A DNA stretch of 64,000 nt from Nemertoderma westbladi (Eukaryota; Animalia; Xenacoelomorpha): positions 10,749 through 74,748 of the forward strand of contig JAUCBJ010002320.1 of NCBI GenBank assembly GCA_032718475.1, given 5' to 3'. Numbering within the stretch: the first letter of the stretch is position 1; each line of letters begins with the position of its first letter. The notes under the pieces were generated by a model. The model saw nothing but the letters and a program-made list of their open reading frames with translations, did no database searches and was not told the DNA's origin. The position numbers and the translations under genes were made by a program. Below are positions 1 to 20,500 of the stretch, one piece after another.

Positions 1-1
1 T

Positions 2-562
2 TCAGCTAGATATTCTGATGCTATTGGTCTTAGGTATTATAATGGGTTTAACTTAACAGCTTCGGAAGTAAATTCATTGTTGTATGAAAGGAATTATGAA
101 ATTAGTAACGAAGGTGTCTTTTCAGAGCTAGATACGAGCGATAAAGCTTTATCTGACCGACTTAAAGTAAAAATAAATGTACAAGAAAAAAAAGTAATTA
201 TTACAGACAAGGAAAGCAAATATTTACAGTTATATTACGATAAAGACATACCACATATAGAGTTTCTCAACGATATGATGGAAAAGGTTTCATCAACTGA
301 TATAGCAGACGGTTTCGCGATTCTATATCAACCAACTTGGAAGTTTAAGGTTAATAAGTCATTTCCAGAAGCAGTTTCATCCACATTTAATCCAAAGACA
401 TACATCGAAGAGACATCGAGTGATAGAAAGCGCAGATCTACGTCTCAAACATCTTCCAATCCCAACAATGATTCTATACCTACAAAGAAAAGAAAAGTTA
501 CAAAAGCAAGTGAAGAGGTAGCAGATTACAATAAGGAACATATAAAAGCAGTATCAGATTGA
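2..562 (+). CDS. Polinton accessory protein of unknown function, 5' end outside window
   Basis: Frame is open from position 2 to TGA at 562. The C-terminus is Ser/Thr-rich with basic motifs DRKRR and PTKKRKV (NLS-like). Confidence 0.55.
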   Translation, partial: SARYSDAIGLRYYNGFNLTASEVNSLLYERNYEISNEGVFSELDTSDKALSDRLKVKINVQEKKVIITDKESKYLQLYYDKDIPHIEFLNDMMEKVSSTDIADGFAILYQPTWKFKVNKSFPEAVSSTFNPKTYIEETSSDRKRRSTSQTSSNPNNDSIPTKKRKVTKASEEVADYNKEHIKAVSD

Positions 563-903
563 TTTATTATTAACTAGAGACTTTTTTTTTCAGTTTCACA
601 CTGACTAGTAAAGGTAACTTTTTAACACAAAGCATGATTATTATAAAGTATTTGCATGTAAAGGTGACTTTATTGAGTAAATATTGGTGATAGTTTATAT
701 TTAATGTGAGCATGGGATTAGGTATTCAACATTCGCATGTAAATGCATGAGTTTACACCTGATATTATAATAAAACCTACTTTAACAATGAAAATTAAAA
801 ACGCATTATGCACATCTTGGTTTAGACTTGATTTTATTATAAAGAATTCAGTTGTAAAAGCAACTTTATTTATGATATTAGTTTCCAATGTAACTGTTAT
901 TTA

Positions 904-943
904 TGATTGGTTGGTATAAGTAGAAACTTGAAATATATATAAA
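904..943 (+). promoter_or_regulatory. Putative PolB promoter: inverted CCAAT box plus TATA box
   Basis: TGATTGGTTGG at 904 and TATATATAAA at 934-943, upstream of the ATG at 1107. Confidence 0.45.
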
Positions 944-1106
944 GAGCTCAACTGATTCAATCGAGCTCATTCTGAAAATATTAAATTAATTAAAGTTTAG
1001 ATATTATATTTTATTTGTGTTGAGTAGCTTATGAATTTTTTTTTGATTATATATATATATAACAATATTCATATTAATTTTAAATTGTTTTTAGGCTAAT
1101 AAAGAG

Positions 1107-4100
1107 ATGGATAAACAATTGAAATGTCCATTTTGTCCTCTTCAAATTTCTAAACATAACTATTTATCTCATCTGAAGTCACATTTTTATGTTTATTCTT
1201 GTTTTAATTGTCATGTTTCAACTCCACGCGAAGAAATTTGCAAACGACATGAATCAACTACGGGTTGTAAAGAAATGAAGTTTTGCGTGTATGAAAAAAC
1301 TTGCCCTACTTGTAATAAAGAGTATTTATATGAGAATTATTTACGTCACGACTGTCACCAACGTTATTATCATGTTAGACCACCACGACGGAACCAAAAC
1401 AATACTGTCGCATCTAGAAAAAGACTGAAATCTGGTCAAGGTCCATCAATTTTTAGCCTCGAACGAGCCGCACACGATAACTGTTTAGAAATCTATATTT
1501 ACAATCTTCCGAATGATGAAGATTTTCCTGATATTCATTCATCGATACTAAAAATTCTACCTTACATCCAAACGTTATTATTAGGAAAACTTAGCGAAAT
1601 GAATGTACTTAGACCCTGGCTAGGTGTGAATATACTCATGTATCGATCACATTTTTCAGAGGGAGACCAAGAAGAAACTTTCTATTTTAGTTCTTCAGGT
1701 GGTGCAGTTAATACCGTAGATTCACATGAAAGTTTCTATATTTGGTTTGAGTATGTACTAGAAAAATTAATGCAAAAAATAGCCATGTTTAACACTCATG
1801 GCTCAGGGTGGCGCGTTAAATCTTTATTAAGAGTGGAAATTAAAGTAGCTGAATCCAAGTCTAAGTCACTGGAATATAAAGGTCACGGTTATATGGAGTT
1901 ACCTAAAGGCTCTATCGAGTAAACGATATGTTATAAATATACAAACGGCTGATAATGACTGTTTCAAATGGGCTATTATAGCCACAACATTTAGTAGCAA
2001 AGTGAAAGATCACAAAAACCGTACTTCGCAGTACACAGATTACATGAATTATTTTATTTTTGACAATGGGAACAAAGATTATCCAACAGAATGGCAGCTT
2101 GCAATTAAACTTTTTGAAAAACAGAATTCAGCATATATAATTAATTTATTACTCTACGACAACAATCGAGTATCTATATTAAGACAGGCACCATTTAGTA
2201 AAATCACTCCAGATAAAGAGTTATTGAACATATTACTTGTAAAAAATAAGAATACAAGTAAACAATCACATTATGTTTGCATAACTAACTTGAATCGCTT
2301 GATGAATATAAGAGGTAAGCATATTAGATGTAGGAAATATTGTGAACGGTGTTTGTCTCATTTCTACAGCAAGGATGTTCTAGAACGTCACCGTCTTACT
2401 TGTTATCAAGGAAAAAGTCAAGTTGAGAAGCTACCGTCTGAAAAAAGAACTCACATTAGCTTTAGAAATTTAGACAGAACATTACCAGCATTGTTTGTAA
2501 TATATTTTGACATAGAATCTATTTTGGAGCCAGCCAGCAATAGTAAATTTATTCAGAATCATATTCCATGCGCTGTAAGTTATTTAATTGTCCCTAGTAG
2601 CGAATTAATCAATCCACCAAAATTTTATTTGAAAACCTTTACAAAAACAATCGACAACAACTGTATTCAAGACTTTTTAGACTCTGTATATAATGACATC
2701 ACCCAATTATGTAAGTGGTCAGAAACTAACATGAGAGAAAAGATGATACTTAATGATGTAGATAAGTTAAGTTTTTGGAAAGCTAAAACTTGCTTTTATT
2801 GCAATGTTTTATTTAAGGATAAATCTGAGAAAAACAAACATCACTCACATATTACTGGTAAATATATAGCAGCCGCTTGTAATACATGTCAAAAATCTTT
2901 ATCATTGAAACGACACATATATATACTCGCTGCACACAACTGCAATCACTACGATTTGCATTTTCTTTTGCAAGTTGGGTTTTGTAATAACCGATATTCC
3001 GATTGGGATATAAAGGTAATCCCTAAAAATTCTGAAAGGTATATTTCACTGAGTATGCATATACCGGTGAAAGATGAAAAAACAAAAATCGAGCTACGTG
3101 TCTTAGACACATATCAATTTTTATCCTTTTCCCTAAGTACTTTAGTTGATTGTTCAACAAAGGATATAGACAGCGAGGATATAACATCAGTTCTACCAAT
3201 TACTGAACAGCAAATGAAATATTTTTATCTGAATTTAAATAATGCAACAATTAAACGAAAAGGTATATTTCCCTACGAGTATCTGACAGATTTAAATAAA
3301 TTCAATGATTCGAAATTCCCATCAATAGACAAATTTTATAGTAAATTAACACAAAATACCTGTACACCCGAGGAATATAGTTTTGCCAACGCATCATGGA
3401 GTCAGTTTGACTGTTCAAATCTCAAGGATTATCTTTTAGCATACTTAAAACTCGATGTTTGTCTCCTCGCTGATATATTTGAGAACTTTAGGAGAGTATG
3501 TAGACAAAACTACGAATTAGAAGTAGTTTATTATTGCAGCATCGCAGCTTTCACTTATGAGTGCGCCCTGAAATACAATAAATGTAAGTTAGCATTAATA
3601 AAAGATTACCAAACATATAGAGATTTTGAAGCATCTATTAGAGGAGGGGTTTCATTCTGTCGAAAGCATTACATAGAATCAAATATACCAGATACTGATA
3701 ATTATGATCCAAGCAAGGAAGAGTGTCATATTTTCAATATAGATTTTAATTCCTTGTATTCGGGTAATTTAAGTAAAAAGCTACCTGTTTCAGGTTTTGA
3801 ACAAGTCAATGTTACATATTTAGAGAATGCCGCTCCAGAAGAACTAATAAACTATTTAACAAATCTTGATACTGAAGGGGATATTGGGTTTTTCTTAATT
3901 TGCGATTTGAAATATCCCAAAGATATTCATGATCGTACATTAGAACTACCCTTAGCCCCAGAACATTTAAGTATAAATGAGACAATGCTTTCACCATATA
4001 TGAAAGATCAATATAATAATATATGTAAACAAAGAGGTACTAATAGCAAGTATAAGATGTGTGCACCAAAACTTATGTTGACACAATTCGATAAAGAATT

Positions 4101-5124
4101 CTATCATGTAAATTTAAAACTGTTAAAATTTTATATAAAACAAGGTTTAATTGTTACTAAGCTCCATAAATTGTATTCTTTCCATCAAGACTTTGTATTT
4201 AAACCCTATATAGATTTTAATATTAATCAAAGACGACTAGCAAAAAGTTACATTGAAACGGCTGTCGCGAAATTGCTTAATAACTCGTTATTTGGTAAAA
4301 CAATTGAGAAGATACGAGACCACTATAATTTCCGTATCGCTAATAGCAATGAGAAATGCGATCAATTGGTGAAACGTATAAATCACGAAAATTTCATGAT
4401 TTATAACAATTCCTTATCGGGACAGTTATTAGTGAAAGACAGCGTGACACTAGATAAACCAGTCTATGTAGGTAGTACTGTCTTGGATTTAGCGAAACTT
4501 GATATGTATGAGCTGTACTACAATAAATTACTACCTATTGAGAGAGAATTAAACTGCCGAATTGAAATTGTAGCATCAGATACAGACTCATTAATAGGTT
4601 GTTATTATAATACATCGCAGAGTAATTTCTTAAAAGCCTTAATTAAACATAATATTCTAGATACCTCTAATTACCCCAAGGATCACCCTCTCTACAGCGA
4701 TAAAAATAAATCCAGACTCTATTACTGTAAAGACGAGTTGTGCTCGAGAGAGATTAAACAAGCAGTATTTTTAAGACCAAAATTATATTCAATTTTGGAA
4801 TGGAATAACAAAAATATACGACGGGCGAAAGGAATAACAAGACCTGTCATGGATAAAAAAATTTGCCACGAAGATTATTTGAGAGCATATAAGGATAATG
4901 AAGAAATTTCCAAGGAAACGCATCAATTTCAGAGTCAATTACACAAAGTGTACACTGTAGCACAAGATAAGTTTGCTCTCAGCGCATTTGACGATAAACT
5001 TTATTGGGTTAATAAAAATCATTCACTTCCCTGGGGTCACTATCAAACAAAGGTTATAAAACCAGTACCTATAAAAAATATACCTATTTATCGGGAGCCA
5101 AACAATGAACTATCAGATAGTTAA
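1107..5124 (+). pseudogene. Protein-primed family B DNA polymerase (pPolB) with N-terminal C2H2 zinc fingers and an endonuclease VII-like domain; single frameshift near 1908
   Basis: ORF 1107-1922 (CPFC..H..H fingers, GSGW, YMELPK) continues after one extra base as ALSSKRYVINIQTADNDCFKWAII into ORF 2002-5124. That ORF has ExoI YFDIES, CFYC..HHSHITGKY..ACNTC, KGIFPYEY, motif A DFNSLY, motif B KLLNNSLFGK and motif C SDTDS. Confidence 0.95.
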
Positions 5125-5377
5125 TAAGAATGTAAGTTGCCAGCAAGTGTCAGCGATTAATTTGAAAGAATTAAAAAATCAATTATCTGGTAAACACATA
5201 CTCAAACCAAATCAGTTTATATATAAGATATTTGGTGCCACATTATTAATATTTAAAAATGGTCGTATTACATTATTAGGTAGTAAGTATAATTTCCAAA
5301 AAGTAAAAAAGCATATATTTGATAAAACAAGTATTAATTTGATTTTAAAATCTGTTAATTTATGTACTTATATTTTT
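5105..5377 (+). pseudogene. TBP-like protein, N-terminal repeat (gene interrupted by insertion)
   Basis: YQIVNKNVS..INLKEL..ATLLIFKNGRITLLGSK resembles TBP repeat 1 (LQNIVST..LDLKTI..TALIFSSGKMVCTGAK). The ATG overlaps the PolB end by 20 bp. Confidence 0.75.
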
Positions 5378-7006
5378 AATTAGGAGCCCGCTTGACAGCG
5401 GGATACTTACTGTAAGAATCTTCAGGATACATTACATTGACTGACACTGACTGACTGATAATTATCTAGGTTAAGGCACTTCCTGCCTGGCGATTTTGAT
5501 GAAATTTTGCAAGTACATTGCTTTTGAGGTTCATAATCGCGTTACAAAATTTCAGATCGATTCTATGTGTGGTATTCGATATATTCAGTTTTTTGACATT
5601 GTTTTGTCGCGAAATTAAAAGCAATGGTAAAATAACAGCTGGTGTTCATGATGAAATATGGCTTAATATGTTATACACAGTCATAGTAAAACGTATTGGT
5701 TGCCAAGTTTTACTAGTAGGCTATAAGGAAAGTCAATGTTTACTCACACATAAGCTGTTGGTTTCTAATGTATTACCCCATAAGCTGATTGCTCTCCCAG
5801 TGCTTCCTAAGGGTATATCTACAATAAGGTTACTCACTCTGCTATGTTAGGGGGTGGATCAGGAGAATGAATTTTAGTTACACAAAGCAGTGTGTTGTGT
5901 CCTATTGCAGTCGATACTCACTGTGGATTGCAAAATGTTTTATAGTTGACCTACACTATAATACAGTAGTTGCATGTATTTAAGGAGCCCGCTCTGGCCT
6001 ACTGCCTAACTTAGCAGTAATACCTATATTACATATACACATATTAAAAATATTCTTATTTTTTTTATTACATACGATTTTTTAGCTGAAACGATTTTTT
6101 AGCTGAAGCATTAATAGTGTAAATTAATTTAATTATATTTTAATACCATTACTACATTGGCATACTGTAAGATAAGTTTTAATATTTCTTACAAATAGTG
6201 GTGCGAGCATAAATCAAATCACGCAAATTTAAAAGAAACGGGTGTGTTGTCATAGCAAAGTTTCAGTTTTTATTATGTGGGACGAGCCACAAAGTACTGC
6301 TGAGAAAGACTGAAAGGTTCAAAGACTGTATGTCAACAATGTTATTATTATTATAGTCTGCGCCACAAACAGAATATGCCAAATAATTAAATTAGCAATA
6401 TAAATTTCAGAAAAATAGCTATCGGACTTGGCTGAAGAAATCGAATTATAATCCACTTAGTTTGTTATATTGATGATATTATTACTCTCTGGGAATGTGT
6501 TGGAATGGGAGATTGTAAATTATTATTGAACAGTAAATATTACATATCCCATAAAAGTCGTCATAATTAATTGTGTAGAAACAATTGTTCACCTTCTCGT
6601 TTAGATTAATTAGTAAATAAATAAATTAGTTTAGATATTTTCTGTTAGCGAATTTATTTCGAATAATAAAAAAGTGTGTAGGCCGATTGTATGGTTGTTT
6701 AATTTGCGTTATTATTTTTCGCCGCGACCTAGACTTCTATTAATTGTTAAATCTAATGGTTTTCAAAAAGAAAGGTAACCGTACCTGTACTGGTAAATCT
6801 AACTTGTTATTTATCTGGTTGTGAATCATGGGCATTTTCTTATAAATATTCGGTTGTTAGTGGCAGCAAAGTTTCATTTTTTATTATGTGGGGCAAGCCA
6901 CAAAGTCAGCTATGTATCATCACACCATTTAGACAATTGTTTAGTTTAGTATTGGCTAGGATTCTTCCCCCCGGGCTCCTTCCAGCCAGCTTGCTGGCTC
7001 TCTAGT
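5378..7006 (+). mobile_element. Non-autonomous Helentron/DINE-1-like (HINE) element
   Basis: 5' subterminal repeat AGGAGCCCG with adjacent hairpin CCCGC-ttgaca-GCGGG and a GACT microsatellite. 3' inverted subterminal repeat CGGGCTCCT, hairpin AGCCAGC-tt-GCTGGCT and CTAG end. Inserted in a T run with no TSD; removing it restores the flanking reading frame. Confidence 0.75.
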
Positions 7007-7433
7007 ATTAACTCTGTAGTCTATACGTTATTGATAAACAATACCGGGTTTTATGTTGTCTTTGATAATCTACAACTTCAAGTTATATATGAACCTGAAA
7101 TTTTTAATAATTGCAAAATAAGAATAAATAATACCGTAGTCATTTGCTGCTTTCATACCGGTAAATGTACTTTAATGTGTTCACCTAGTATATTTCACAT
7201 TTATTACCCTATATTTAGTATTAACTCTGTAGTCTATACGTTATTGATAAACAATACCGGGTTTTATGTTGTCTTTGATAATCTACAACTTCAAGTTATA
7301 TATGAACCTGAAATTTTTAATAATTGCAAAATAAGAATAAATAATACCGTAGTCATTTGCTGCTTTCATACCGGTAAATGTACTTTAATGTGTTCACCTA
7401 GCATATTTCACATTTATTACCCTATATTTAGTA
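7003..7433 (+). repeat. 213-bp in-frame tandem duplication
   Basis: Units start at the TAGTA microhomology at 7003, 7216 and 7429. The two copies differ at one visible base. Confidence 0.9.
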
Positions 7434-7498
7434 AACTGGTTAATTATTTATTAATGTTTGGTGTTGTGACTTTAGGTGTAGAATATATTGGTAATTAG
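7007..7498 (+). pseudogene. TBP-like protein, C-terminal repeat (tandemly duplicated)
   Basis: INSVVY-(x)-YEPEIFNNCKIR..VICCFHTGKCTLMCS..IYYPIF resembles TBP repeat 2 (QNMVGS..YEPELFPGLIYR..LLIFVSGKVVLTGAK..NIYPIL). The Asn-to-YEPE spacing is 25 residues in both. Confidence 0.78.
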
Positions 7499-7611
7499 AA
7501 GGTGAAAATTAAACATTATTATTTTTCAATTGATCTATCGGTAGTTAGGGAAAACTAACCTCGTTTGAATAAGTATGACTCTCGCAGGCTGACTGCAAGC
7601 CTAGCCGGTAG

Positions 7612-7745
7612 TAGCTGCGTGGCTGGTTGCGAGGCTGGCTACGAGGCTGGCTGCGAGGCTGGCTGCGAGGCTGGCTGCGAGGCTGGCTGCGAGGCGGGTT
7701 GTGAGGCTGGCTGCGAGGTTGGCTGCGTGGCTGGCTGCGAGGTTG
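7612..7745. repeat. 12-bp GC-rich minisatellite (GCTGCGAGGCTG)n
   Basis: About 11 imperfect copies are visible. Confidence 0.9.
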
Positions 7746-8979
7746 ACCGCATCCCCAGCAGCGTGGCTGACTGCGCACATATCTGATTGTAACTGGCTCA
7801 CGATATTGTATATTGGCTTAGTTTGTTACTGCAGGTACTGTTACATTAATACTGTAGTACCGGTACTGCTGTACAGTGCTAATCGAAGGAAATCAGTATG
7901 TTCTATCTGACTATATACTGTTACAACAACAGTGACAGTACTGCAGTACTGTATTGTTTGGGTAGGTGATCTAATCCCTACATGTGAGACCCTCGCGTGC
8001 AATCCAGGTCATGACTGCAGTATGCTTGCCTGACTGCAGTATGCTTATAGGTGGAAAAAAAACAAATGCTATTGCATCAGATTACTGCTGTACTGATACC
8101 GGTAGACCGCGACTCAGTGTTGGAAGAGTAAAACACTGTCGGTACTGATAAAGTGGATGACAGTTGTGGATAGGGGGCTGCGAGGTTGACTACATCCCAG
8201 CAGCGTGGCTGACTGCGCACACATCTGATTGTAACTGGCTCACGATATTGTATACATTGGCTTAGTTTGTTACTGCAGGTACTGTTACATTAATACTGTA
8301 GTATCGGTACTGCAGTACAAAGCTAATAGAAGGAAATCAGTATGCTCTATCTGACTATACTGTTACCTGGTTACAACAACAGTGAAAGTACTGCAGTACT
8401 GTATTGTTTGGCTAGGTGATCTAATCCCTACATGTGAGACCCGTGCGTGCAATCCAGGTCATGACTGCAGTATGCTAATCAAAGTTATGGGTAGACTGCA
8501 GTATCCTTATAGGTGAAAAAAACAAATACTATTGCATCAGATTACTGCTGTACTGATACCGGTAGACCGCGACTACAGTGTTGGAAGAGTAAAACACTAC
8601 CGGTACTGATAAAGTGGCTGCAGGTACTGTTACATTAATACTGTAGTATCGGTACTGCAGTACAATGCTAATAGAAGGAAATCAGTATGCTCTATCTGAC
8701 TATACTGTTACCTGGTTACAACAACAGTGAAAGTACTGCAGTACTGTATTGTTTGGCTAGGTGATCTAATCCCTACATGTGAGACCCGTGCGTGCAATCC
8801 AGGTCATGACTGCAGTATGCTAATCAAAGTTCGGGTAGACTGCAGTATCCTTATAGGTGAAAAAAACAAATACTATTGCATCAGATTACTGCTGTACTGA
8901 TACCGGTAGACCGCGACTACAGTGTTGGAAGAGTAAAACACTACCGGTACTGGTAAAGTGGATGACAGTTGTGGATAGG
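7733..8979. repeat. Long imperfect tandem repeat, ~440-bp unit, about 2.8 copies
   Basis: Copies start near 7733 and 8176, with a partial copy at 8618. They share blocks such as TAGGTGATCTAATCCCTACATGTGAGACCC. Confidence 0.85.
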
Positions 8980-9358
8980 CCTATAATAAATTATTGAATT
9001 TAACAGTACCGGTACCAACAGGTTAACATTACATCCTATACAGATTATGTTGCATTTCTGACTAATATTACTAAAGTTATATCACTAGTCAACTACTGTA
9101 TGTGTTATTAGTTTGCGATGTATAGTATGTTTCGCAATACCAGTACAACTATATTAGAATGATATCGAGAATACTTACTGTACATGTTACGTCTACATCA
9201 TATTGTTAAATGTGTATGTTAACCTAGCGCAATTGATTCTTTTTTAGAGAACTTGTTGTAAAAAAAATTATATTTTATTATATTTTTATATTAACATCAA
9301 GATCATCACCAAAATAAAATTATATTATATCCCATCACATTACAAGCTTAGAGTAAAC

Positions 9359-9931
9359 CTACTGTACATCATTCACCGCAGTTATTTCTTTCTGTTTATC
9401 ACCTGTCTCAGTTAATCGCTTCGTTACATACCCTCCAATCCTTTTCGCTGAGCAGTAATTCAAGCAGCTATCACCATCTTTGTGAAAACTACATTTATCT
9501 TCTACAGTAGTTAATTTATCGTGGAAGGGGCATGGAGTTAAATAATTGTAATATAGTCGAAATATTCCCAATTTGTTCATCGATTTTGGAGCGTAAACAT
9601 CAAGTTGGGTATTTAATATTGCGGCTTTCATCAACCCGAATACATATATATTATATTTATTTTTTAATTGTCTCTTCATGTATTTTTTAAAGTCATCTTG
9701 CGAAATGTCACCGTAATCCCAAGGTAAATGTGATGTAATATCGCGTAAATTGTTTACGTGGGCTTTATCTAATGCTGATAACTTAATATTAGGAGGTCCT
9801 TTAATTAAAAACGTCTTTATATTAGTTTTACTGTATTTAGAATTGAATATAGCAAATTCTTTAAATACTACCGGATATTCCTTATTGTCTATCTTATAAT
9901 ATTGAAAATCAACAAAAATAATATTATCCAT
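9359..9931 (-). CDS. DEDD/DnaQ-like nuclease-fold protein, Polinton accessory
   Basis: N-terminal IIFVDFQ..KEFAIF, LPWDYGDI, IYVFG..K and C-terminal CPFH/CSFH..C, a pattern I recognise from Maverick-associated exonuclease-like ORFs. The ExoI Glu position is Gln. Confidence 0.6.
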   Translation of the reverse strand: MDNIIFVDFQYYKIDNKEYPVVFKEFAIFNSKYSKTNIKTFLIKGPPNIKLSALDKAHVNNLRDITSHLPWDYGDISQDDFKKYMKRQLKNKYNIYVFGLMKAAILNTQLDVYAPKSMNKLGIFRLYYNYLTPCPFHDKLTTVEDKCSFHKDGDSCLNYCSAKRIGGYVTKRLTETGDKQKEITAVNDVQ

Positions 9932-9975
9932 TTTATCTGATAATATATTTAGATAAACAAAAGTTAAATGATTAA

Positions 9976-10428
9976 TTACAACGCTTGTTGGTTTATTTTA
10001 TAATAATTAACAAGCCATTTATATAATATTATTTCATTTATTTCCACATTATTTGTAAACGCTCTCATTGGATAGTTTGTGTGAATTCGATTTACCAAGT
10101 AATAAAGACAGTATAACCCACATGTGGTCCTTCTAGGGTCTGGAAATTGTTTGCGGGTAGTACGCCACCTTGCTGAATTTTTCTCAAGCCATTTTTCGAT
10201 ACATCTGTTTGGATATTTTGGTCCAAACGAATTAAATAATTCAGCATCATTATCTCGTATATATATAGCTACCCAATGAACACCTGGTAGATGCTCTTTA
10301 TCAGTATTTACTATTAACCCGTAGTCTCTTCGCTTATTATTATCTAATTTAGGTAATTTATTAGATGGAAACGCCCCCAAATAGTGACCACCCACTGGAA
10401 ACATATCAAGGTCCTCAGTAGATAACAT
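9976..10428 (-). CDS. Adenain-like cysteine maturation protease
   Basis: YLGAFPSN, IVNTD..PGVHWVAIY, FNSFG and Q..TCGLYCLYYL, containing the His and Cys catalytic motifs. Confidence 0.93.
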   Translation of the reverse strand: MLSTEDLDMFPVGGHYLGAFPSNKLPKLDNNKRRDYGLIVNTDKEHLPGVHWVAIYIRDNDAELFNSFGPKYPNRCIEKWLEKNSARWRTTRKQFPDPRRTTCGLYCLYYLVNRIHTNYPMRAFTNNVEINEIILYKWLVNYYKINQQAL

Positions 10429-10430
10429 AC

Positions 10431-10811
10431 TTAATCGATATGTATTTCTTTCCTGCTATTTAAACTTAATGATTGATCATAAATATTAAAAATGATTACA
10501 TTTATGGTCTCAACCAACGGTTCTGCAAATCTTAATTTTAATTGTCCATTAGTATATATCGATGGTTGAGGATCTCTAACATAGCCGTCAGCAGTTAGGT
10601 CCCAGGATATGAGTGGGCAATTACCTAAGTAGGTTTCATGGTCTATATTATTACCTCCATAACCGTTAATATATGTATTAATGTTCTTCATTAATTGTGT
10701 ATACTCAAAAATGTATGTTCCATCTGTAAAATTAGGCTCGTATATTACACCACCTACTGGAAGACCGTCTACAATCAGTTCCGCGCGTCTAAGGTTAAAA
10801 TGTTCAAAATG
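10431..10811 (-). pseudogene. Major capsid protein (double jelly roll), C-terminal fragment only
   Basis: The frame extends upstream of the listed ORF as HFEHFNLRRAELIVDGLPV..YEPNF..EY, then WDLTAD..LKLRFAEPLVETINVIIF. Most of the N-terminal part is missing. Confidence 0.85.
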
Positions 10812-11257
10812 CTTTAATATGAATTACCAAAATTTTGATATTTGACGTTGATACAAAGTTATAAATTTTTTTGTCAGTAAAAAACGAAAAATTGAATCTT
10901 TGAGACTTGATGACGTCATATCTTTGTACCCAGAGTGAAAAAAAAATTTTGGTAATTCAAATAAAAGTCCATGAAATTATAAAACTAATGTAAAAGGAAT
11001 TTACGAAATTCGTTTAAAAATACAGTAGTAGTAGTGAATTATATTTTTAACTGGTTTAAAATACATTATGCTAATTTAAGACGGCTCATTAACATCTAAT
11101 TATCATAATTAGGTGAAAAATTTTTTTTTTTTAAATTTAATGTTTTGTTATTAAAATGAGCCATAAATTGTTGCCAGGTGTAGAGCCATTCAAAAGTTAC
11201 ATGTGATGCAAGTTCGGACACATAAAGTACACTTCAAGGTGTGATGTCCCCCCTTAA
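10812..11257. mobile_element. Relic of a TTAA-targeting DNA transposon at a deletion junction
   Basis: Minus-strand TTAA-GGGGGGACATC starts exactly where penton similarity stops. There is an internal inverted repeat GAATTACCAAAATTTT/AAATTTTGGTAATTC. No matching second TIR is present. Confidence 0.45.
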
Positions 11258-12061
11258 TTCACCTTGGCCGTCACGTAAAGTAATTAAGATTGTTTTTAGT
11301 TTTTTATTCAACAACGGGTAATAGCAAATGCTCTCGTATTCGTGATTAATATATTTTCGATTTAATTGTGTTAAAGGACAGGTTCTTAAGAGCGGAGCTA
11401 AAGCATCACCAACAAATGAGCTCTTAATAATATCTGTATATATGAAGATTGTATCTTTATTACGAGTAATATTCGTTGGATTTGGAAAATCTAAAATCCC
11501 AATTTCCGAAATTTTTGGTCCACTATAATTTAAAATTAATATCGGCTGTTCTATATTGCTTAATTCATCCACTGTAGTGGTACTGTATATATCCCAATTC
11601 GGAATACCTGGATGATTCTGATCCAATAACTGTTTTAAGCCTAGAATTTGTATTAAATCACCGCGTAGACTTAATTGTATTTTTTTCAACTTTTTAGGAA
11701 ATTTAAATTTAATTCTAGAATTATTTGTATTAAAAATGAATTCGAAATCTCTATATTTCGCTTCAGAATTAAACAGTTTATTTATATCATCAATAATGAC
11801 TTGAATAGAGCTATGCATACCAGGAAATAAACTGCATAATTTGGCATCTTTTGCATCTACCCCGATTGACAGCGAGATTTGAGTTTGCAGAGTAATATTA
11901 CTGTATGTTGCTTGGTATTGTATCTCGGCGAGTCCAATTTTAGTGTTTGAACCAATATATAATTCTTCAGCTAAATCAACAGTAAACTCGCTAGGGTTAT
12001 TATTGGGGTATGTGTTTAATGAGCTATCTGAAAGTAGAGTGATATATGTATCTACAGCCAT
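11234..12061 (-). CDS. Minor capsid protein (penton), C-terminus truncated by insertion
   Basis: YITLLSDSS..YPNN.PSEFTVDL, IGLAEIQY, IFIYTDII..SFVGD..APLLR, YYPL..ITLRDGQGE. Confidence 0.9.
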   Translation of the reverse strand: MAVDTYITLLSDSSLNTYPNNNPSEFTVDLAEELYIGSNTKIGLAEIQYQATYSNITLQTQISLSIGVDAKDAKLCSLFPGMHSSIQVIIDDINKLFNSEAKYRDFEFIFNTNNSRIKFKFPKKLKKIQLSLRGDLIQILGLKQLLDQNHPGIPNWDIYSTTTVDELSNIEQPILILNYSGPKISEIGILDFPNPTNITRNKDTIFIYTDIIKSSFVGDALAPLLRTCPLTQLNRKYINHEYESICYYPLLNKKLKTILITLRDGQGELRGDITP

Positions 12062-12074
12062 TATTATTATTATT

Positions 12075-12498
12075 TAAGCTCTCTCTACTTGACTCCTTTG
12101 TACATACAGTACGGTATAATGTTAAACTATAGACATCTGTGACCACGTTCATTGTTTCTACAGTATATGCGAGAGATCAATATTTAAAGCGAATGAAATA
12201 TAGATATTAGACTTACAGCATAGTAATATCATTCGAGTTAATATTGATTAATTACGATCATATGTGACCATTATTCGCTTAAGCTCTCTCTATTTGACTC
12301 CTTATACATACTGTATAATGTTAAATTATAGACATCTGTCACCGCGTTCATTACCGCTTCTACAGTATATGCGAGGGATCAATATTTTACTGGCTTTATT
12401 TAAAGCGAATGAACTATAGATATTAGACTTACAGTATAGTATAGTAATATCATTCGAGTTAATATTGATTAATTATGGTCATATGTGACCATTATTCA
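12075..12498. repeat. Imperfect tandem duplication, ~205-220 bp, upstream of penton
   Basis: TTAAGCTCTCTCTA..ATATGTGACCATTATTC occurs near 12075 and 12279. Confidence 0.8.
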
Positions 12499-12531
12499 CG
12501 CAATGAATTAATATACAGTATAAACCTAAAC

Positions 12532-13620
12532 TTATTGAATATGCTGTACCCACGACTGTTTTTTGGATCCAATGAATCGGACTAAATATTCTTTTTTCCC
12601 ATTGCGCACACATTCTTTAAGTTTGCCAATATTTTTGTCAATCGGAAGATAAATATTACTACTCGGGTGGACCTTTTGGAGTTCGTATGAATAAAATGAA
12701 CCATTTATTATAGCACCAGCGCTGTCCTTAATATCGAACAATACCGCTGGTACTCTATCCAATCTGACCCGATGAATAACAAATAATTCACGTGTCCATT
12801 GTTCTCCATAGCCTTTAGCAAAAGCTGTACGCACGATAGATAAACGTATTGTATCTCCAACTTGAAATTTTATTTTCTTGTGATTAATCTGTCTATATTT
12901 CCCATATAATCTATTAATTAATTCAGTTTCATTAAATTTATTAACTTCAATGGGAGTCATTTGTATTGTCCTATGAAATGACCTATTATAAGCAAAAATA
13001 AGCTTCGGTAAAATTTTTATCCAAACATTATTTCCCTATTGCGTGAAAATTTTGAACATCTTTGTTTTTAATGTTCTATTGAATCTCTCGACAATAGCCG
13101 CCTTATTCACAGAGTACATTACGTAATAACGTACACCAATAGTATCTAAATATTTTCTTACAGATTTATTTAGAAACTCAGACCCTTGATCAGTCGCGAT
13201 TCTGTTTGGTTTACCTTTCTGGAATATTTTTTGCAATATACTAATAATTTCAATACCTGTTTTTGTCTTCATACCATAGGCAAAAGCAAGCCGGCTAAAG
13301 GCATCAATATATGTTAATATATAGTTATAATTATTATTTTGTGATTTATATTGCTGCATATCCACCAGATCTATCATATATATATCTTTTAACCCTCCCG
13401 TAAATATTTTAGATGTTGGATAACGATGTCTACGTGGTGCGTGAAGGGAGTATGTCTTTTGCCCGCTCAACCATTTCTGAGCTTGAGATGGTTTGATGTT
13501 TGCGGCTTTTGCTAATTTTGCGATACTTGCAAAACCTGCAGGCGATGAAGGATCTAAATAAATTCTTAACAGTTTTTTGTCTAAGCTTCGGCTTAAGATC
13601 GGTTTCATCTTGCGTGGCAT
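12532..13620 (-). pseudogene. Retroviral-type (RVE) integrase with chromo-like C-terminus; in-frame TAG at 13036-13038
   Basis: D-D-E motifs IDLVDM, TDQGSEF and VERFNRTLK. The frame continues past the stop (Q*GNNVWIKILP..YNRSFHRTIQMTP) into FQVGD..WTRELF..FYSYELQ..EYLVRF. Confidence 0.93.
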
Positions 13621-13671
13621 CTTTTCGACAACCGCAAGTAATATATATATTCAAATCTCTTATAAAGGGCA

Positions 13672-13839
13672 CTACCGTAAAAACAGCTGAAATTTTTTTA
13701 TTTTCTTTGAAGTTGATGTTTTGAAGGGTTTTCTTTTTGTAGTATTTACTCTAGGTATATCTTGAGGTTTTAAATCAGTAGCTAACGGTTTACTCGATAC
13801 TAAATATAATTTTCTAAATGTTACTCCCGTTTTAACCAT
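13672..13839 (-). CDS. Short basic ORF (55 aa) between PW-like gene and integrase
   Basis: MVKTGVTFRKLYLVS..., with its ATG directly after the upstream stop. RKLYLV resembles the start of the gene I recall at this position in Mavericks. Confidence 0.35.
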   Translation of the reverse strand: MVKTGVTFRKLYLVSSKPLATDLKPQDIPRVNTTKRKPFKTSTSKKIKKFQLFLR

Positions 13840-13841
13840 TA

Positions 13842-14225
13842 TTACCGTCCGCGGTTATTTTTTTTCGCAATAGCCGCTCCAGCGGCAGCGGCACCAGCAC
13901 TCGCGGCGAGTTTCGCACCAATGCCGAGTAAGGGTATTAGAAACCGTAGTATGCCTCCAGATTGATTGGTTAACTTTTTTCTGTAACTTGATATATTTTT
14001 TGTTTTGCGGTTGAGCGATTTTAATACCTTTTTATAACGACGAATATTTCTAAATGAATGAGGGGTCAATTGTACGTTACCTTTTAGAACATTTAATGCG
14101 GTATTTACAATGAGTCGTATTAATTCGTTACTCGCGGTATGGTTAATAAAATAAGTTCTTTGTTGAGGGGTAGCGCTGCGTAGAAATTCCAATTCGTTAC
14201 GATATTTCTGCACAAGTCTATTCAT
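13842..14225 (-). CDS. Small basic Polinton core protein (PW/pX-like)
   Basis: ALNVLKGNVQLT, an Arg/Lys-rich segment, then a QSGG protease-site-like motif followed by hydrophobic ILRFLIPLLG. Confidence 0.75.
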   Translation of the reverse strand: MNRLVQKYRNELEFLRSATPQQRTYFINHTASNELIRLIVNTALNVLKGNVQLTPHSFRNIRRYKKVLKSLNRKTKNISSYRKKLTNQSGGILRFLIPLLGIGAKLAASAGAAAAGAAIAKKNNRGR

Positions 14226-14258
14226 TGTTGCAACATTATTGAAAATTGTTACAAAATA

Positions 14259-14939
14259 TTAATTATTATTATTATTATTATTTTCGCTACGTTTATAGTC
14301 AATGTAATTTTTAATGTAACAATTATGATTACGAAATATATCCGATCTAAATCTTAAATGTTCGGGTGTTTCCTGTCGTAAATCAATTAAGAAATGCGAA
14401 AATGGTTCAATAGTCGCATCTTGATAGGAATCTACTAAAAATTTGGTCTGCCCTGGTAACATCTGCTTCGCGAAATTTAAAACCGATAAACTGTCTCGCG
14501 GATTTTTCATTAATACATTCATTTTTCATTCATTAATGGATCTTGTACGGTTATGCTTCCCACCGTAAAACATGTTTTGCGTTATGAAACAAATAAATAT
14601 ATTGGAATGATGAGAAACCTTAGTAAACAATACAGTTAAGGCTGTACTAGACTCAGTTTCTGTTAATAAATCATCTATAATTAATAAATCTCGACTATTC
14701 ACTAAACTATCTATATTTTCAGGCAAACCTTTGTAAAGGTGAGTAATACCAGGAATAGTCGGGGGATTGCTCCCGTAACGATACAATACTCGTAAGGGGG
14801 GTTCGTTGAAGCAGCCATTCTTGTGTTTAATTAAATTACCAACAAATGTAGACTTTCCGGAACCAGACGGACCAGAAATTATCATACTCATTCCCATTTG
14901 AAAGTTTAAATTATATGGACCTGAATTAAAGTCAGCCAT
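14259..14939 (-). pseudogene. A32/FtsK-like DNA packaging ATPase; in-frame TGA at 14526-14528
   Basis: Walker A GPSGSGKST, Walker B LLIIDD, ITQNMF, then KNPRD and FLIDLRQETPEHLRFRS in the same frame after the stop. Confidence 0.93.
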
Positions 14940-15127
14940 TTATTATTATTATTAAGATATATCAACAATACAATATAATATAATATAATATAAATATCAA
15001 TAAACCATCACCATTACTATGTATATATGTAACAATTCACAAAAAAAACAGCATTTTACAACAAAAAGTATGTACAACTGTAGTATTAGTATATTTATCA
15101 TGGCAATCTTTCGTTCTATTTATTACC

Positions 15128-15829
15128 TTATTTGAAAAGATTGTGTAATCGTATACCTGCAATCAACAGACATTGTTTTCGATTTAAATAATGTCCATAC
15201 CAAGTGAGATAGCGGTGACATCGTATAAATTCGTTATACTTCTTAGTTTGACATTTACGTTCTATACCACGTCCGTAGCATTTAGTACTGGAAATATGAC
15301 TTAGAGTATGCTCCATCAAAGTGCGAATTACTCTCATACACAAATCATTGCAAAGAATACCTTCATCAAGTTTCAAATAATACTTTTTTGGTTTTATACC
15401 TCTCGAAGATGATTCATCTTTATATGTCTTAAAGTAAATATCAAAACTACGTAAATTCTTATTTAATTTTACTGTGATATTTTTATGTTCTTCATCAAAC
15501 AACCAAGGTACCATAAAGCCGCCTTTTTTCACTATATATCGATAAAAAATATTCTGTGATATTGTAAATAACTCGTTAGGTTCGTTACTTTTTCCTGAAA
15601 TGTAAATAGAATTCCGCAGCTCTTTCCAATAATATGGATTATATAACTTGTTTACTCTGCAAAGTGTCTGTACTCTACAAATTGGACAAATTTTAGTACA
15701 ATCATTAATTTCAACATGTTGATCAATACATGTCACACAAGTTCCATGTTTATTAACATATATGTAACAATCAAGATGTTTTAAATTAGAATAACAAATA
15801 CTACAATTTGTGTTTATTAATATATCCAT
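15128..15829 (-). CDS. RING-finger protein (putative E3 ligase), Polinton accessory
   Basis: N-terminal CSIC..H..CVTC..CPICR pattern in an intact 233-aa ORF. Confidence 0.7.
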   Translation of the reverse strand: MDILINTNCSICYSNLKHLDCYIYVNKHGTCVTCIDQHVEINDCTKICPICRVQTLCRVNKLYNPYYWKELRNSIYISGKSNEPNELFTISQNIFYRYIVKKGGFMVPWLFDEEHKNITVKLNKNLRSFDIYFKTYKDESSSRGIKPKKYYLKLDEGILCNDLCMRVIRTLMEHTLSHISSTKCYGRGIERKCQTKKYNEFIRCHRYLTWYGHYLNRKQCLLIAGIRLHNLFK

Positions 15830-15896
15830 TTTTCTTAAATAACCAAACCAAAATCGTTAAAATGTTGATAAAATATTTATAATATAGCTGAAAGAG

Positions 15897-16322
15897 TCAA
15901 GAATCATCTTCATTGTCATCGGTTTCTTCAGTGGTTACAAGGGTTTCTTTCGAAATAATAACAATAAACAAAGCCATAATTTCATAAGCATTTTTACAAT
16001 CTAATTTGATCTCAAACTTTTCACATTTATTGCTCGCTATATTACCACTATATTGAGTAATAACAATAAAGTTATCTGACATTGATAAAATTGTGAATTT
16101 ATCTAAATCATCTTCTTCTTTGTAATCTAAAAGGTAATTAGTAGAATCTACCTCACCGAAAATATCAATAGATTGTAGTTCTTTTCTTGCTTGTTCAGAA
16201 ATGTCTATTTTAAAATTAGGTTGTGAAGGACAATAAATAGTGTTACCAATAACAATACAAGTAAGATTATCTACAGTATTAAATGTATGTCTTATTACAG
16301 GCGCAGGTGTATCAGAAGACAT
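15897..16322 (-). CDS. Acidic protein of unknown function, Polinton accessory
   Basis: Open frame from ATG 16322 (MSSDTP) preceded by an (AAT)n leader, with an acidic tail. Confidence 0.55.
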   Translation of the reverse strand: MSSDTPAPVIRHTFNTVDNLTCIVIGNTIYCPSQPNFKIDISEQARKELQSIDIFGEVDSTNYLLDYKEEDDLDKFTILSMSDNFIVITQYSGNIASNKCEKFEIKLDCKNAYEIMALFIVIISKETLVTTEETDDNEDDS

Positions 16323-16417
16323 TATTATTATTATTATTTTATGTAATAACAATTAAATAACAGCGACAAGACAGATAAATAAATATTAATGATATTTTTT
16401 TCTATTCTATTCATATA

Positions 16418-16480
16418 TTTATATAGATCATGTTATATATACAACCAATCAACTAAGAACACGTGTCACATGTAACCAAT
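16418..16480 (-). promoter_or_regulatory. Putative promoter of the minus-strand gene block
   Basis: The minus strand reads ATTGG, CACGTG, TGATTGGTTG and TATATAAA in that order. Confidence 0.45.
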
Positions 16481-16675
16481 AGAAAGTAAATAATAACAGT
16501 AAATGAAGCAAAATAGGTCAGGCTACAGTATAACTCGGATATTTATCGCCTTTTTCTCTCGAGGTTGGATGGAAGAGTGAGTGGTGAGTTGTGAGGAGTT
16601 ATAACGGTCCCGAGTTCGAACCCAGTTGAATATTTTGTTATCTGAAAAATTGCAAAATTAAATTTAGTTACTGGT

Positions 16676-17153
16676 GAAAAATAGTAGAAGTTACCTGTAG
16701 ACACCTCTAGCGTCTGTAAAATAAAGGTTGGTGAATATGAAAATACTGGTTGCTGAAAAATAGCGATTTGAAAAATAGTAGAAGTTACCTGTAGACACCC
16801 CTAGCGCTTGTAAAATAAAGGTTGGTAAATATGGAAATACTGGTTGCTGAAAAATAGCGATTTGAAAAAATAGTAGACGTTACCTGTAGACACCCCTAGC
16901 GCTTATAAAATAAAGGCTTATGATTGGAGGAAGGAGTAGCGTTGGGTGACTAATAACGCCTCTAGCGGAAGATGCGGGAACTTGAGAAGTTACCATGGTT
17001 ACAGTTGAAATGCTGGCATCTGATTGGTTGAAATAATAACGACCACTGCTAATGGTTGAAATGGTGGCTTCTGATTGGAGGAAGGAGTAGAAATGGATGG
17101 TAATACTGGGCTATGGGTGACCTTGATACAGGTTCATATAAATATATACTACT
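16676..17153. repeat. Polinton right terminal region (probable TIR) with ~94-bp tandem repeats
   Basis: ATAGTAGA.GTTACCTGTAGACACC at 16681, 16775 and 16870; TGATTGG at 16921, 17021 and 17072; terminal ACTACT. Confidence 0.7.
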
Positions 17154-17232
17154 TACATGCCTAACCTCTGGTGATTCCGCTATACAGCCTATACCTAGCA
17201 AACACTATCAACCTGGCTACCAACCTAACACT

Positions 17233-17588
17233 ATGCCTCCAAAGTTCCTGAATAACAACAGATTGAAAGTTGAAAATAGAAAGAAAGATAAACAGTTGAT
17301 AATAATGGTAAATAAATCAAATTCTGTGAGTCCCAATGGATCGAAATCCTTGAGTCCAAGTGGAATGGAAGAGATGAAATTTTCCAAGAGTTTTCAAAAA
17401 CGGGTTGAAGTGCTGAAAAGTCAACAAGCATTAAATGCACACATTCTGCCAAAGGAACCAATTAATAAAAGGACAAGAATCCACGATTGCGTTATGAAGC
17501 CAAGGATTTTGTTTACTCAATGGGCCTCTTCTACTACTTTACATGGTGTCTGGCCCATATGGAATAGGGAACGCTTCATAGGAATCAG
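17233..17588 (+). CDS. DEG/ENaC exon 1 (HG motif); start codon uncertain
   Basis: FTQWASSTTLHGV; donor AG|GTGCGT at 17589. Confidence 0.8.
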
Positions 17589-20500
17589 GTGCGTATGTTT
17601 TCGTGGTAACATCTACTCGGGGTTCTGGCACAAGGTGAAAGTAGTGGAAACAAGTCACATGGCTCGCCGCGAAACAGTTCCATAGCTAAACGTATATTAT
17701 ATGTCAGGGAGAAAGGTTTCCCCTCCAATATCCACATTGCTAATTTCCTAATACCAGTATCGCGGTGTCGGAGTGGATACAGCGCAGTTTAATTTCCGAC
17801 TAAGGGTTGTTGAAATTTCGCTCTGTTATCTCGTTAAGCAAAACACTTTAGAGATTAATGCTCACCAGGTGGATTAAAGATAGTTTCACACTCTTGGGAG
17901 TTAGTGTGGCTCCCTCCCTGCCTAATAGGTAACGGCCAAGAGAGATGAGGAGCATTCGGCTTGCCTCCCATTTTTATTACAAATGTGTTATTATTTGCAC
18001 TGTTACTAATTTAAACATTTTTATGGCTCTAAATCCCCAGATCTGTAGGCCTACTGTACCTCCTGTATTGTTAACTCACACGGAACGTATTCAATTATAC
18101 ATGCATAAAAAATTTATTCTCCTAATGCAATGAGTATACAATGCGATATAGTATGCAATAGTATGTAATGCGCTTACAAAATGTTTATGGATATTTACTT
18201 ATTCTCACATCCACACATTGTTTTAGGATATTGTGGCTGATTGCATTTATAGGAAGCATCACTCTGTGCGCCGTCCAAACTTTCGAAGTTATTACGAAAT
18301 ATTTGAATGAGGAGAAACTTACATCAGTGCGGACAAATGTGCCTGGTGAACTTGGAATTCCATTTCCAAGTGTAACAATTTGTAATAGAAATATAATGCG
18401 GTGAGTGAGTAACTGCTAAATATTATTAAAAAATAATTCTAGAAATCTGATAAAATATAAATTTCCCCGGCTTGGGCCATGACCTACTATAATAAAGTAA
18501 ACCATATAAAAGTAAGTAGAAGTTAACAGGGGGGGGGGGGGGGGGGGGGGGGGTACCCTCCTGGACACATTTGAAATTTTATGACTGTGCAAGAATTACT
18601 TAAATGGTCCAATAAGCCATGCCACATTCGAGGTATAATATAATAATGTGTTGAAATTTAAAATTTTTTAGATTTTGTTGCTCTCAAGAGGTGAAGATAA
18701 GAAATTGAAATATTCAGAAAATTTGCTACTTTTGCTAATTAATATTCACTTTCACACTCTCTCGTATCGTTTTTTTGAATTCAGCAAACAAAATTACATC
18801 ATAAATTTCGACCACATTTTTTAAATAGCCCTGTAAAATGTCGACAAAAAAATCACCTAACTAAAAAATCCTGTCGAAAAATAATTTCCAGCGTAAAAGT
18901 ATCTTTCTAATAACGTTTGAAACGTGTCAAATGACCAAGAAATGGCGCACTAGTACCGGTAGAATTTTTGGTGAAAAAAAAACAGTTCCGAGAAAAACGG
19001 CTTTAACGTTTAAACCCTCCCGCTCAAAATTATCTCCGGTATGTAAATATGTAAGGATGTATATTAATATATATCTATGAGGGTAACATTCCATCACCTA
19101 GCTAAAATGTTCGCTGTGGGGGTTTTCCTGGCCTCTGATTTCATTTCCGATGTCAGTTTTTAATTTACACAGGATCTTGTATGACTTTTTGTCAGTCTGT
19201 CAAAGTTTTGACAGACCGACTGAAAGACAGACCGGCGGACAGACAACCATAACTCGATAAATAAATAGATCTCGCTAAGCCGTATTAAATATCTGTTCTA
19301 GATAAAATAAAAAAAAATTCAAAATTTTAATCCGGTGGGGGGGGGGGGGGGGGGGGCACCCTCCCCCCTTAAGCCACCACGTTAACAGATGTGTTATTAT
19401 CAATAAGAGCGATTACACTTAATAACCATTTCTTTTACAAAAATAAAGTAACATTTATTTTAACCGACATTATAATCCGCATATTCGCGGAATAATTAAA
19501 GCATTTTCATTTCGAGGCCGAGGAAAAAATCACGAGGAAATGCGAATCATAAGGAGGACAAATAATTATTTATTACATGGGGAAAAAGGTAGAACTTTTT
19601 TCACTATTCTCTATAAGAATTTTATTTACCGAGCGTCAGCGAGGTTTTAATAAAGGGCCGATTCTAATAAAGTGTCATTTCTCTGAGAAAGCGGTGGGCA
19701 ATTTTAGTTAATTTGGCCCACCAGTTCAATACCTATAATAGGCCCTGCCGACATTAAGGGGGGGGGGGGGGGGGGGGGGGCTTTACCTTTTTTTAAGATA
19801 AAAAATTCCCCTTTTACTAGGGCAAATCTGGTCCTGTAACTAGGACCCCCTTCGTTCTGGGATAAGGACGCCCTTGGTCCTGGATTAAGGACCCATATAC
19901 TTGGCTGCAGGGGTATATGGCCTGACCAGGCAGATGGTGATCTACCAATGGCTGGTCCCCCATGGAAACGAGGTATAACCTCATGGGGCTATCCTAGGTG
20001 CACCATATTATTTTTAAATAGTGTTACTGTGTTAACAGGTTAACGTTATTTTTAATTTTGTTGTAAATGTTGTCAGAATGCTGGAATGTTATGCAGGGCC
20101 GATCATTAAGTATGTCTATTTATGCTGTCAATTTTAATATGTTTCGTAATTTTAATATGCTTTGTGTTCGTTTTACAGTAGGCACTATTACTATAATTTG
20201 GCGTCCAATAAAAAACTTCAACTTCAACTTCAACTTCAGGAGTAGAGTGTTCTTATGTCCACTCTGAGAGCACTTCACTGCGACCTGCGCCTGGCAGCAA
20301 GGGTACAGGGCATGACCCAGCAGATGAGCTGCAACAGCCAATGGTGGGTCATGTGCGCCAGAGTAGATATGGGTGATGGGCCTCATATCTGACTTCATTG
20401 CGACACCCACCCTGTGGAATGGCAAACCAGGGTGTGGTATTTGCCCCGAGAGTTGAAGATAAAAAATGCTGGCTCAACATGTTTAGTTTTGGAGATATTA

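Follow-up and report, generated by a model that had tools for sequence, protein, structure and literature searches.

A broken TBP-family gene in a decayed Polinton of Nemertoderma westbladi and its intact relatives

A TBP-like gene in two pieces

We analysed a stretch of 64,000 nucleotides from the genome of Nemertoderma westbladi (Xenacoelomorpha; contig JAUCBJ010002320.1, positions 10,749 to 74,748 of the forward strand), referred to here as the window and numbered from its first letter. A decayed Polinton occupies positions 1100-15000. It contains the hallmark pair of genes, a protein-primed DNA polymerase (PolB) and a retrovirus-like integrase, and by sequence the element is Polinton/adintovirus-like. 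At the end of PolB lies a broken gene that resembles the TATA-binding protein (TBP), arranged as follows.

2044..5124, plus strand: PolB (1255 matches at E ≤ 1e-10, the best 41% identical, many with PF03175)
5070..5077, plus strand: canonical TATA-like site in the 3′ end of PolB, 35 nt ahead of the TBP start (post hoc, and weak because 52 such sites occur on the two strands of 1-16700)
5105..5383, plus strand: TBP-like gene, piece 1 (repeat 1), ended by the insertion; 92 amino acids (aa); Pfam TBP E = 3e-5
5377..7004, no strand: non-coding insertion of about 1.6 kb, ends approximate, likely a non-autonomous Helentron-type element
7003..7428, plus strand: in-frame 213-bp tandem duplication (7003-7215 and 7216-7428, one mismatch) of most of TBP repeat 2
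7007..7498, plus strand: TBP-like gene, piece 2 (repeat 2, mostly present twice, and the C-terminus); one copy, Pfam TBP E = 2.7e-4

The initial annotation of this DNA read the open reading frames (ORFs) 5105-5383 and 7031-7498 as one TBP repeat each, and the profile searches bear this out, with two tandem repeats detected by PF00352. The first piece scores 24.2 bits against a cut-off of 22.9, and a single copy of the second scores 21.1 bits, 1.8 under it; the duplicated form of the second piece reaches E = 1.2e-9, a value inflated by the repeat. With profiles built from 76 archaeal and giant-virus TBPs, the two pieces give 15.7-18.2 and 9.4-11.4 bits, and the pieces joined with an X at the break (the X-read-through) give 22-22.6. 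A profile of the eight Polinton TBPs described below raises these scores to 35.5 and 24.4 bits for the pieces and to 60 bits for the X-read-through, compared with 22.6 for the cellular profile. Alignment of profiles with hhalign matches the first piece to the same eight TBPs at 94% and the second at 90%, and the first piece also finds a TBP of known structure in the PDB (1mp9, E = 0.009). Shuffled sequences reached the archaeal and giant-virus profile scores in 0 of 1000 cases for the first piece, 0-1 of 1000 for the second and 0 of 1000 for the X-read-through, and in 0 of 1000 for the X-read-through with the Polinton profile; because of this, and because the repeats also stand in the right order, the match is not due to chance.

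Single-sequence methods recover much less. Word searches with either piece found no homologue, phmmer with the X-read-through returned 0 matches among 1.84 billion representatives, and scans of viral contigs for related loci with the second piece or PolB alone as query yielded no locus. Folded alone and without an alignment, the first piece reaches a predicted local distance difference test score (pLDDT) of 39 and displays only the order helix, three strands, helix. These modest scores would fit a decayed retrocopy of a host TBP or a chance resemblance, as would the best PDB sequence match of the second piece, an unrelated WD40 protein; a WD40 identity for this piece was itself rejected as a chance beta-strand match. 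The shuffle controls and repeat order speak against such an origin, as do an identity to cellular TBPs of only ~25% and a deletion common to the Polinton relatives, and we regard it as largely refuted and hardly credible.

The gene is interrupted by what had been described as a 1629-bp insertion at 5378-7006. The insertion is real, and the frame at 7007-7498 is open and in frame with the first piece, but the ends can be placed only to within a few bases of those coordinates. No stop-free frame in it exceeds 115 codons. A 9-bp inverted repeat lies sub-terminally (5382-5390 and 6972-6980), and there are a second 5′-type end at 5982-5991 and a 3′ hairpin at 6984-6999. As in the HINE and DINE-1 non-autonomous Helentrons, as far as these are described in the accessible text of PMC4067079, it lacks coding capacity and combines a T-rich target and a 3′ hairpin with a sub-terminal inverted repeat that lies a few bases in from one end; it differs from them in an inverted repeat of 9-10 rather than 12-15 bp and in having two 5′-type ends. 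The insertion looks composite, with 5′-type ends at 5382 and 5982, one common 3′ end and a 42-bp repeat at 6254 and 6865.

We compared the window with contigs from four DNA runs (X1-X4) of one species, representing at most three samples, in which summed depth gives no copy number. Each of the 30 bins of the element is covered by contigs, mostly at ≥90% identity. Three X4 contigs run from unrelated flanks into the insertion at 5377, and its interior is matched with 0-1 differences by contigs of 550-729 bases; it is therefore likely a young repeat. In X1, three contigs part from the window at 5378, and their loose ends resemble, by eye, the DNA to the right of the insertion, which indicates copies without it. 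Of 40 variants listed from the contigs, 0 fall within the TBP-like gene.

The 213-bp duplication is present and in frame as first described, and the mismatch between its copies follows 186 bases. Its start coincides exactly with the 3′ end of the insertion. Possible origins are an assembly error or a rolling-circle element that carried 3′ flank with it when inserting again into the same site of a sister copy. Judging from these breaks, the window copy is unable to make the full protein; it is dead and adds mainly a very divergent member to the family.

Intact relatives and the DNA-binding face

Loci with a related PolB were collected as the best 80 of 340 confirmed metagenome stretches, together with 5 viral contigs (85 loci). 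An uninterrupted TBP-like gene in one ORF is present in 8 of these, one copy (in L029) running to the contig end; among the 34 loci that extend 1.5 kb or more past PolB such genes occur in 8, and among the 15 that extend 6 kb or more, in 6. All eight pass the Pfam TBP cut-off. A relative folded with its family alignment (L021) reaches a pLDDT of 89 and template-modelling (TM) scores of 0.79-0.81 to human TBP; with the profile and hhalign matches, this supplies, by way of a relative, the match to the TBP fold that the initial annotation had proposed to look for, and the uninterrupted copies with related PolB genes that it had also proposed to seek support its view that the gene is native to the Polinton lineage. 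A scan of viral contigs with the Polinton TBP alignment as query gave one further locus (L210), which resembles a larger virus by its ORFs and was not used.

In the window, the ATG of ORF 5105-5383 falls within the last codons of PolB, as had been claimed. This overlap is seen in 0 of the 8 relatives: in seven the TBP gene lies 1-5.5 kb downstream of PolB on the same strand, and in one it is found on the opposite strand, before the ATPase block. The overlap, followed in the window by a repeat-rich stretch, could point to another DNA-binding job, such as Pol III-type initiation or the binding of element termini or repeats in replication. The variable position in the relatives argues against this, as do the boxes described below, which precede protein-coding genes, and we consider such a job very improbable.

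To compare residues we used the yeast numbering from Table 1 of PMC12529657, transferred via locus L003, which is colinear with solved TBPs. The window protein keeps N69, G119, G125, G210 and the E186/E188 pair. Three of the four DNA-intercalating Phe residues had been thought to be retained, which may be an undercount: Phe stands at F99, F116, F190 and F207 in 3 of 3 alignments. The first is less certain, since it adjoins a 5-residue deletion; at this position the eight relatives have Leu (6), Tyr (1) and Phe (1). The two conserved Asn residues had both been listed as kept, which holds for N69, but N159 is most likely a Ser (INSVV) according to both profiles and 2 of 3 MAFFT modes. The same 4 of 8 relatives share this Ser and the change of V71 to Asn.

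Compared with cellular TBP (PF00352; eukaryotic and archaeal), the window protein thus has the same two-repeat core of ~180 aa, with N69, the four Phe, the three Gly and the Glu pair in place. It differs in the 5-residue deletion in repeat 1 and a 1-residue deletion in repeat 2, in V71 (Asn), N159 (Ser), T124 (Leu), P191 (Asn), L205 (Cys) and G216 (Cys), and in lacking an N-terminal extension and introns and being borne by a mobile element. Because of the changes at N159, P191 and G216, it is not a canonical TBP. By sequence, the window and 8 of 8 relatives retain the acidic stirrup E186/E188, a pair that serves TFIIB binding in TBP.

The deletion in repeat 1 is a family trait. The window and 7 of 8 relatives have a Pro-to-Phe spacing of 15 in this repeat and the remaining relative has 16, compared with 20 in 8 of 8 cellular and giant-virus rows. 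Giant viruses (Nucleocytoviricota), most of which encode their own RNA polymerase, also have TBP homologues, and giant-virus TBPs are the top BFVD matches of the predicted L021 structure. In contrast to the Polinton proteins, two full-length giant-virus examples lack the deletion and group apart from the Polinton set. Two loci (L001, 869-2569; L004, 5584-7284) encode a 566-aa giant-virus protein whose N-terminal region is TBP-like but divergent and whose C-terminus is extended by a long basic stretch.

The initial annotation knew of no characterised Polinton TBP, and none was found: within accessible article text, the literature, including papers on Polintons and Polinton-like viruses in which TBP is not mentioned, yielded no work on such a protein or on its box. 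The label itself is not new, however, since ‘TBP’ appears among the genes of MELD viruses with an adintovirus-like PolB in the Fig. 5 legend of Starrett et al. 2021 (PMC8502044). A TBP-like gene was therefore already annotated in this element class, but only as a legend entry, the accessible text containing no residue, promoter or functional analysis; the term had no match in one supplement of that paper, a file that is possibly incomplete.

Promoter boxes and a proposed promoter selector

We searched for shared motifs up to 130 nt ahead of gene starts, using gene lists picked by position in the virion module after a first look at k-mers. A clade-specific variant box precedes virion genes in 5 of the 6 relatives that have such genes (31 of 38 genes). 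In three relatives this box is ATAAAC (L017, 7 of 9 genes; L021, 5 of 6; L025, 6 of 6; 18 of 21 together) and in two it is TTAAGC (L028, 6 of 9; L037, 7 of 8; 13 of 17). Random windows matched these counts in 0-3 of 200 draws, a null that takes no account of how AT-rich upstream DNA is. The distance from site to start is mostly 30-60 nt, and boxes precede just 9 of 31 other genes. Two relatives outside box discovery, L015 (-37) and L029 (-40), carry their own clade’s box at the matching gene. Among 12 loci without a detected TBP, five were tested: one has a canonical ATATAAA and four have nothing. ATAAAC also precedes 3 of 8 genes in L085.

The two boxes track two TBP clades, which differ from each other at DNA-contacting positions 71, 122, 159, 161 and 205. 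This association bears on a decoy model, in which the protein occupies host TATA boxes or ties up TFIIB, damping host transcription, while host factors read the viral boxes. The retention of the TFIIB-binding Glu pair in the window and all eight relatives would suit a decoy, as would the closeness of the clade-1 box to a canonical TATA box. But the box shifts together with the TBP clade and its DNA face, TTAAGC is far from canonical, and a decoy does not predict an element-specific motif; we judge this model distinctly improbable.

Two further ORFs were noted around the TBP genes of the relatives. A phospholipase A2-like gene lies near the TBP gene with the clade-1 box at -35 to -38 (L015 5246, L017 3994, L021 13727). 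In 4 of 4 clade-2 relatives an unnamed ORF of 216-252 aa overlaps the 5′ part of the TBP frame (L008 8810-9568, L028 7511-8161, L029 4842-5492, L037 2522-3238) and is a candidate for a partner or feedback gene; in three of them it stands behind a TTAAGC box.

The initial annotation had envisaged a general reprogramming of host Pol II/III initiation. The relatives point instead to a narrower role, the selection of the element’s own virion-gene promoters, and suggest by analogy a late-gene promoter selector like the viral TBP (vTBP) of herpesviruses. On balance, we lean towards the reading that this TBP-family gene is native to the Polinton lineage and broken here, and that the intact protein is a private promoter selector for virion genes. 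Fold and box are read from the relatives only, the one by prediction and the other by statistics, and every functional step is one that we infer. In such a scheme, the host machinery would transcribe the TBP gene early, from the canonical TATA site in the 3′ end of PolB. Next, a non-standard box would be bent by the saddle, which retains its Phe pairs but has an altered DNA face (V71 to Asn, N159 to Ser, T124 to Leu, L205 to Cys), and the acidic stirrup E186/E188 would recruit host TFIIB and Pol II, host factors being proposed because no gene for an RNA polymerase or for TFIIB was noticed in the element. The shortened repeat 1 and a divergent convex face would loosen control by TFIIA and the TBP-associated factors. 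A scan of 18 window ORFs and 22 neighbour ORFs of the relatives found no TFIIB-like family, no Pol II-binding N-terminal domain and no viral co-activator set.

In beta- and gammaherpesviruses it is established that viral mimics of TBP work with a variant late box (PMC12529657). According to the accessible text of that paper, ORF24 from Kaposi’s sarcoma-associated herpesvirus, with its TATTWAA late box, shares with the Polinton protein a virus-encoded TBP fold (predicted for a Polinton relative), a more polar DNA face and the lack of a viral RNA polymerase; a variant box ahead of structural genes is shared by the Polinton relatives only. The differences are considerable. ORF24 is large and multi-domain, contacts Pol II directly, depends on five further viral factors and has no TFIIB-binding glutamates, whereas the Polinton protein is a bare core of ~180 aa that keeps these glutamates, and no partner factors were found among the ORFs scanned. 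The Polinton TBP therefore works like the herpesvirus vTBP late system at most and is not a member of it.

Several observations weigh against the selector reading. The Polinton profile also scores cellular TBPs, at 54-93 bits, so score alone is no proof of kinship; on sequence grounds the shared deletion in repeat 1 is the better marker. A phylogeny, which the initial annotation had also proposed, does group the window with the eight relatives on one side of a branch, but with support of 92/80, not starred, and with long branches (42 rows, 30 of 74 prokaryote-genome rows being drawn at random, without eukaryotic host TBP); the branch of the window is very long (6.2), the longest among the Polinton TBPs. 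Because there are only two clades, the match of box to clade amounts to about two independent contrasts. One relative with virion genes, L008, has no significant exact box; its one-mismatch motif TTACGCAA was matched by random sets in 1 of 40 cases at 80 nt and 7 of 40 at 130 nt. Host TBP may itself read CATAAAC or TATAAAC. The window alone has Asn at P191 and Cys at G216, residues invariant in 76 of 76 cellular and giant-virus TBPs and in 8 of 8 relatives, and the Pro that matches P191 is essential in ORF24 (accessible text of PMC12529657).

The window also has no significant box of its own, random sets doing as well in 184 of 200 cases for the best 6-mer and 26 of 200 for the best 7-mer, although this test is weak because the capsid promoter is deleted. 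A one-mismatch 8-mer, TTAAATCG, was matched by random sets in 0 of 40 cases at first and then in 7 of 150 and 4 of 75; with scattered distances of 35-248 it was rejected. Also rejected were TTGTTACAT and ATAAAC, each found at 2 of 7 genes, and TAATCAT and CGAAAA, which were not significant. Canonical TATA-like sites lie within 130 nt of the PolB N-terminal ORF, the TBP gene, the integrase and three accessory ORFs, and not within that distance of the ATPase, core, minor capsid and protease genes, a weak and post hoc contrast.

These points feed the main rival, namely that this is a true Polinton TBP whose selector function had already been lost in the window lineage, leaving a drifting protein or non-specific DNA binding only. 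The two changed invariant residues, the longest Polinton TBP branch, the lack of a box in the window and the three protein searches without a homologue speak for it. Against it, neither piece contains a stop, and the four Phe, N69, the Gly turns and E186/E188 are all in place; divergence affects the element as a whole, as seen in PolB; and most same-species contigs are at least 90% alike to the window copy, so the protein’s divergence mostly predates the decay of this copy. We think such a loss rather unlikely.

If the selector reading is taken a step further, animal Polintons may run a one-protein late-gene switch, made of a bare viral TBP and its own variant TATA box, the two changing together by lineage (ATAAAC, TTAAGC); the window lineage, without the proline beside the third Phe, would then read a third box. 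We advance this more tentatively, as something perhaps a little short of an even chance. If true, it would mean a regulated early-to-late viral programme in elements whose particles remain unseen in animals, give Polintons a testable early/late transcription cascade and bear on whether animal Polintons make particles. It would also amount to a set of natural TBPs whose specificity has been rewired. Few known proteins are as conserved as TBP, whose DNA face is invariant at most contact positions in 76 sequences, and minimal viral TBPs with altered contacts and matching altered boxes would reveal the residues that set box specificity.

The decayed element and its surroundings

The remaining features of the element are as follows.

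1107..1922, plus strand: Cys/His-rich ORF, likely the N-terminal part of the protein-primed PolB, by position and by the longer one-ORF PolBs of relatives
7540..9300, no strand: repeat-rich non-coding stretch between converging gene blocks (repeat families D4, D5, D15, D17 and D19; contigs of all four runs)
9359..9931, minus strand: accessory ORF of 190 aa, no family match
9976..10428, minus strand: adenovirus-type maturation protease (Peptidase_C5, E = 1.2e-4)
10431..10823, minus strand: open frame, likely what remains of the major capsid gene at its C-terminal end, with promoter and 5′ part lost (by eye and gene order)
11234..12061, minus strand: likely minor capsid protein, without a Pfam match, resembling ORFs of related loci
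12532..13620, minus strand: retrovirus-like integrase with one stop inside (rve, E = 3e-11)
13842..14225, minus strand: basic ORF, likely a core (pVII-like) protein, the name being inferred
14259..14939, minus strand: packaging ATPase with one stop inside (Pox_A32, E = 5e-4)

The packaging ATPase and protease are thus recognised by Pfam, and the capsid genes are assigned by resemblance alone. Decay is evident in the split PolB, in the single stops in integrase and ATPase and in the loss of most of the likely major capsid gene. No long inverted repeat was found in 1-20000, and the left end of the element may fall outside the window. An Rfam search of 1-17000 gave no match, and a PHROGs search gave nothing meaningful.

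The stretch at 7540-9300 is GC-richer and contains a 12-bp tandem array and units of 344-460 bp, with many joints in contigs of other copies; it could be an origin or terminal region. Two diverged units of ~200 bp lie at 12070-12490, ahead of the likely minor capsid gene, and X3 and X4 contigs skip one of them. Runs of (AAT)4-6, a possible leader motif, stand directly ahead of the ATG of three minus-strand genes, a 141-aa ORF (16322), the ATPase (14939) and the likely minor capsid gene (12061); within 1-16700 there are 8 such runs on the minus strand and 0 on the plus strand. Upstream of the ATPase, 15128-16322 (minus strand) holds a RING-finger ORF (E = 0.009) and the 141-aa ORF, with CCAAT- and TATA-like sites. 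This segment is perhaps cargo of a subfamily, since its summed contig depth is far below that of the core element in X1-X3.

Beyond the element, fragments at 17100-18400 resemble by eye what we take to be an animal DEG/ENaC channel gene, which would agree with an animal host. At 21352-24525 lie decayed pol fragments of retrotransposon type, which by eye look like protease and reverse transcriptase. A pair of 254-bp inverted repeats at 29916-30534, 96% complementary and with internal 45-bp units, is likely a miniature inverted-repeat transposable element or a foldback element.

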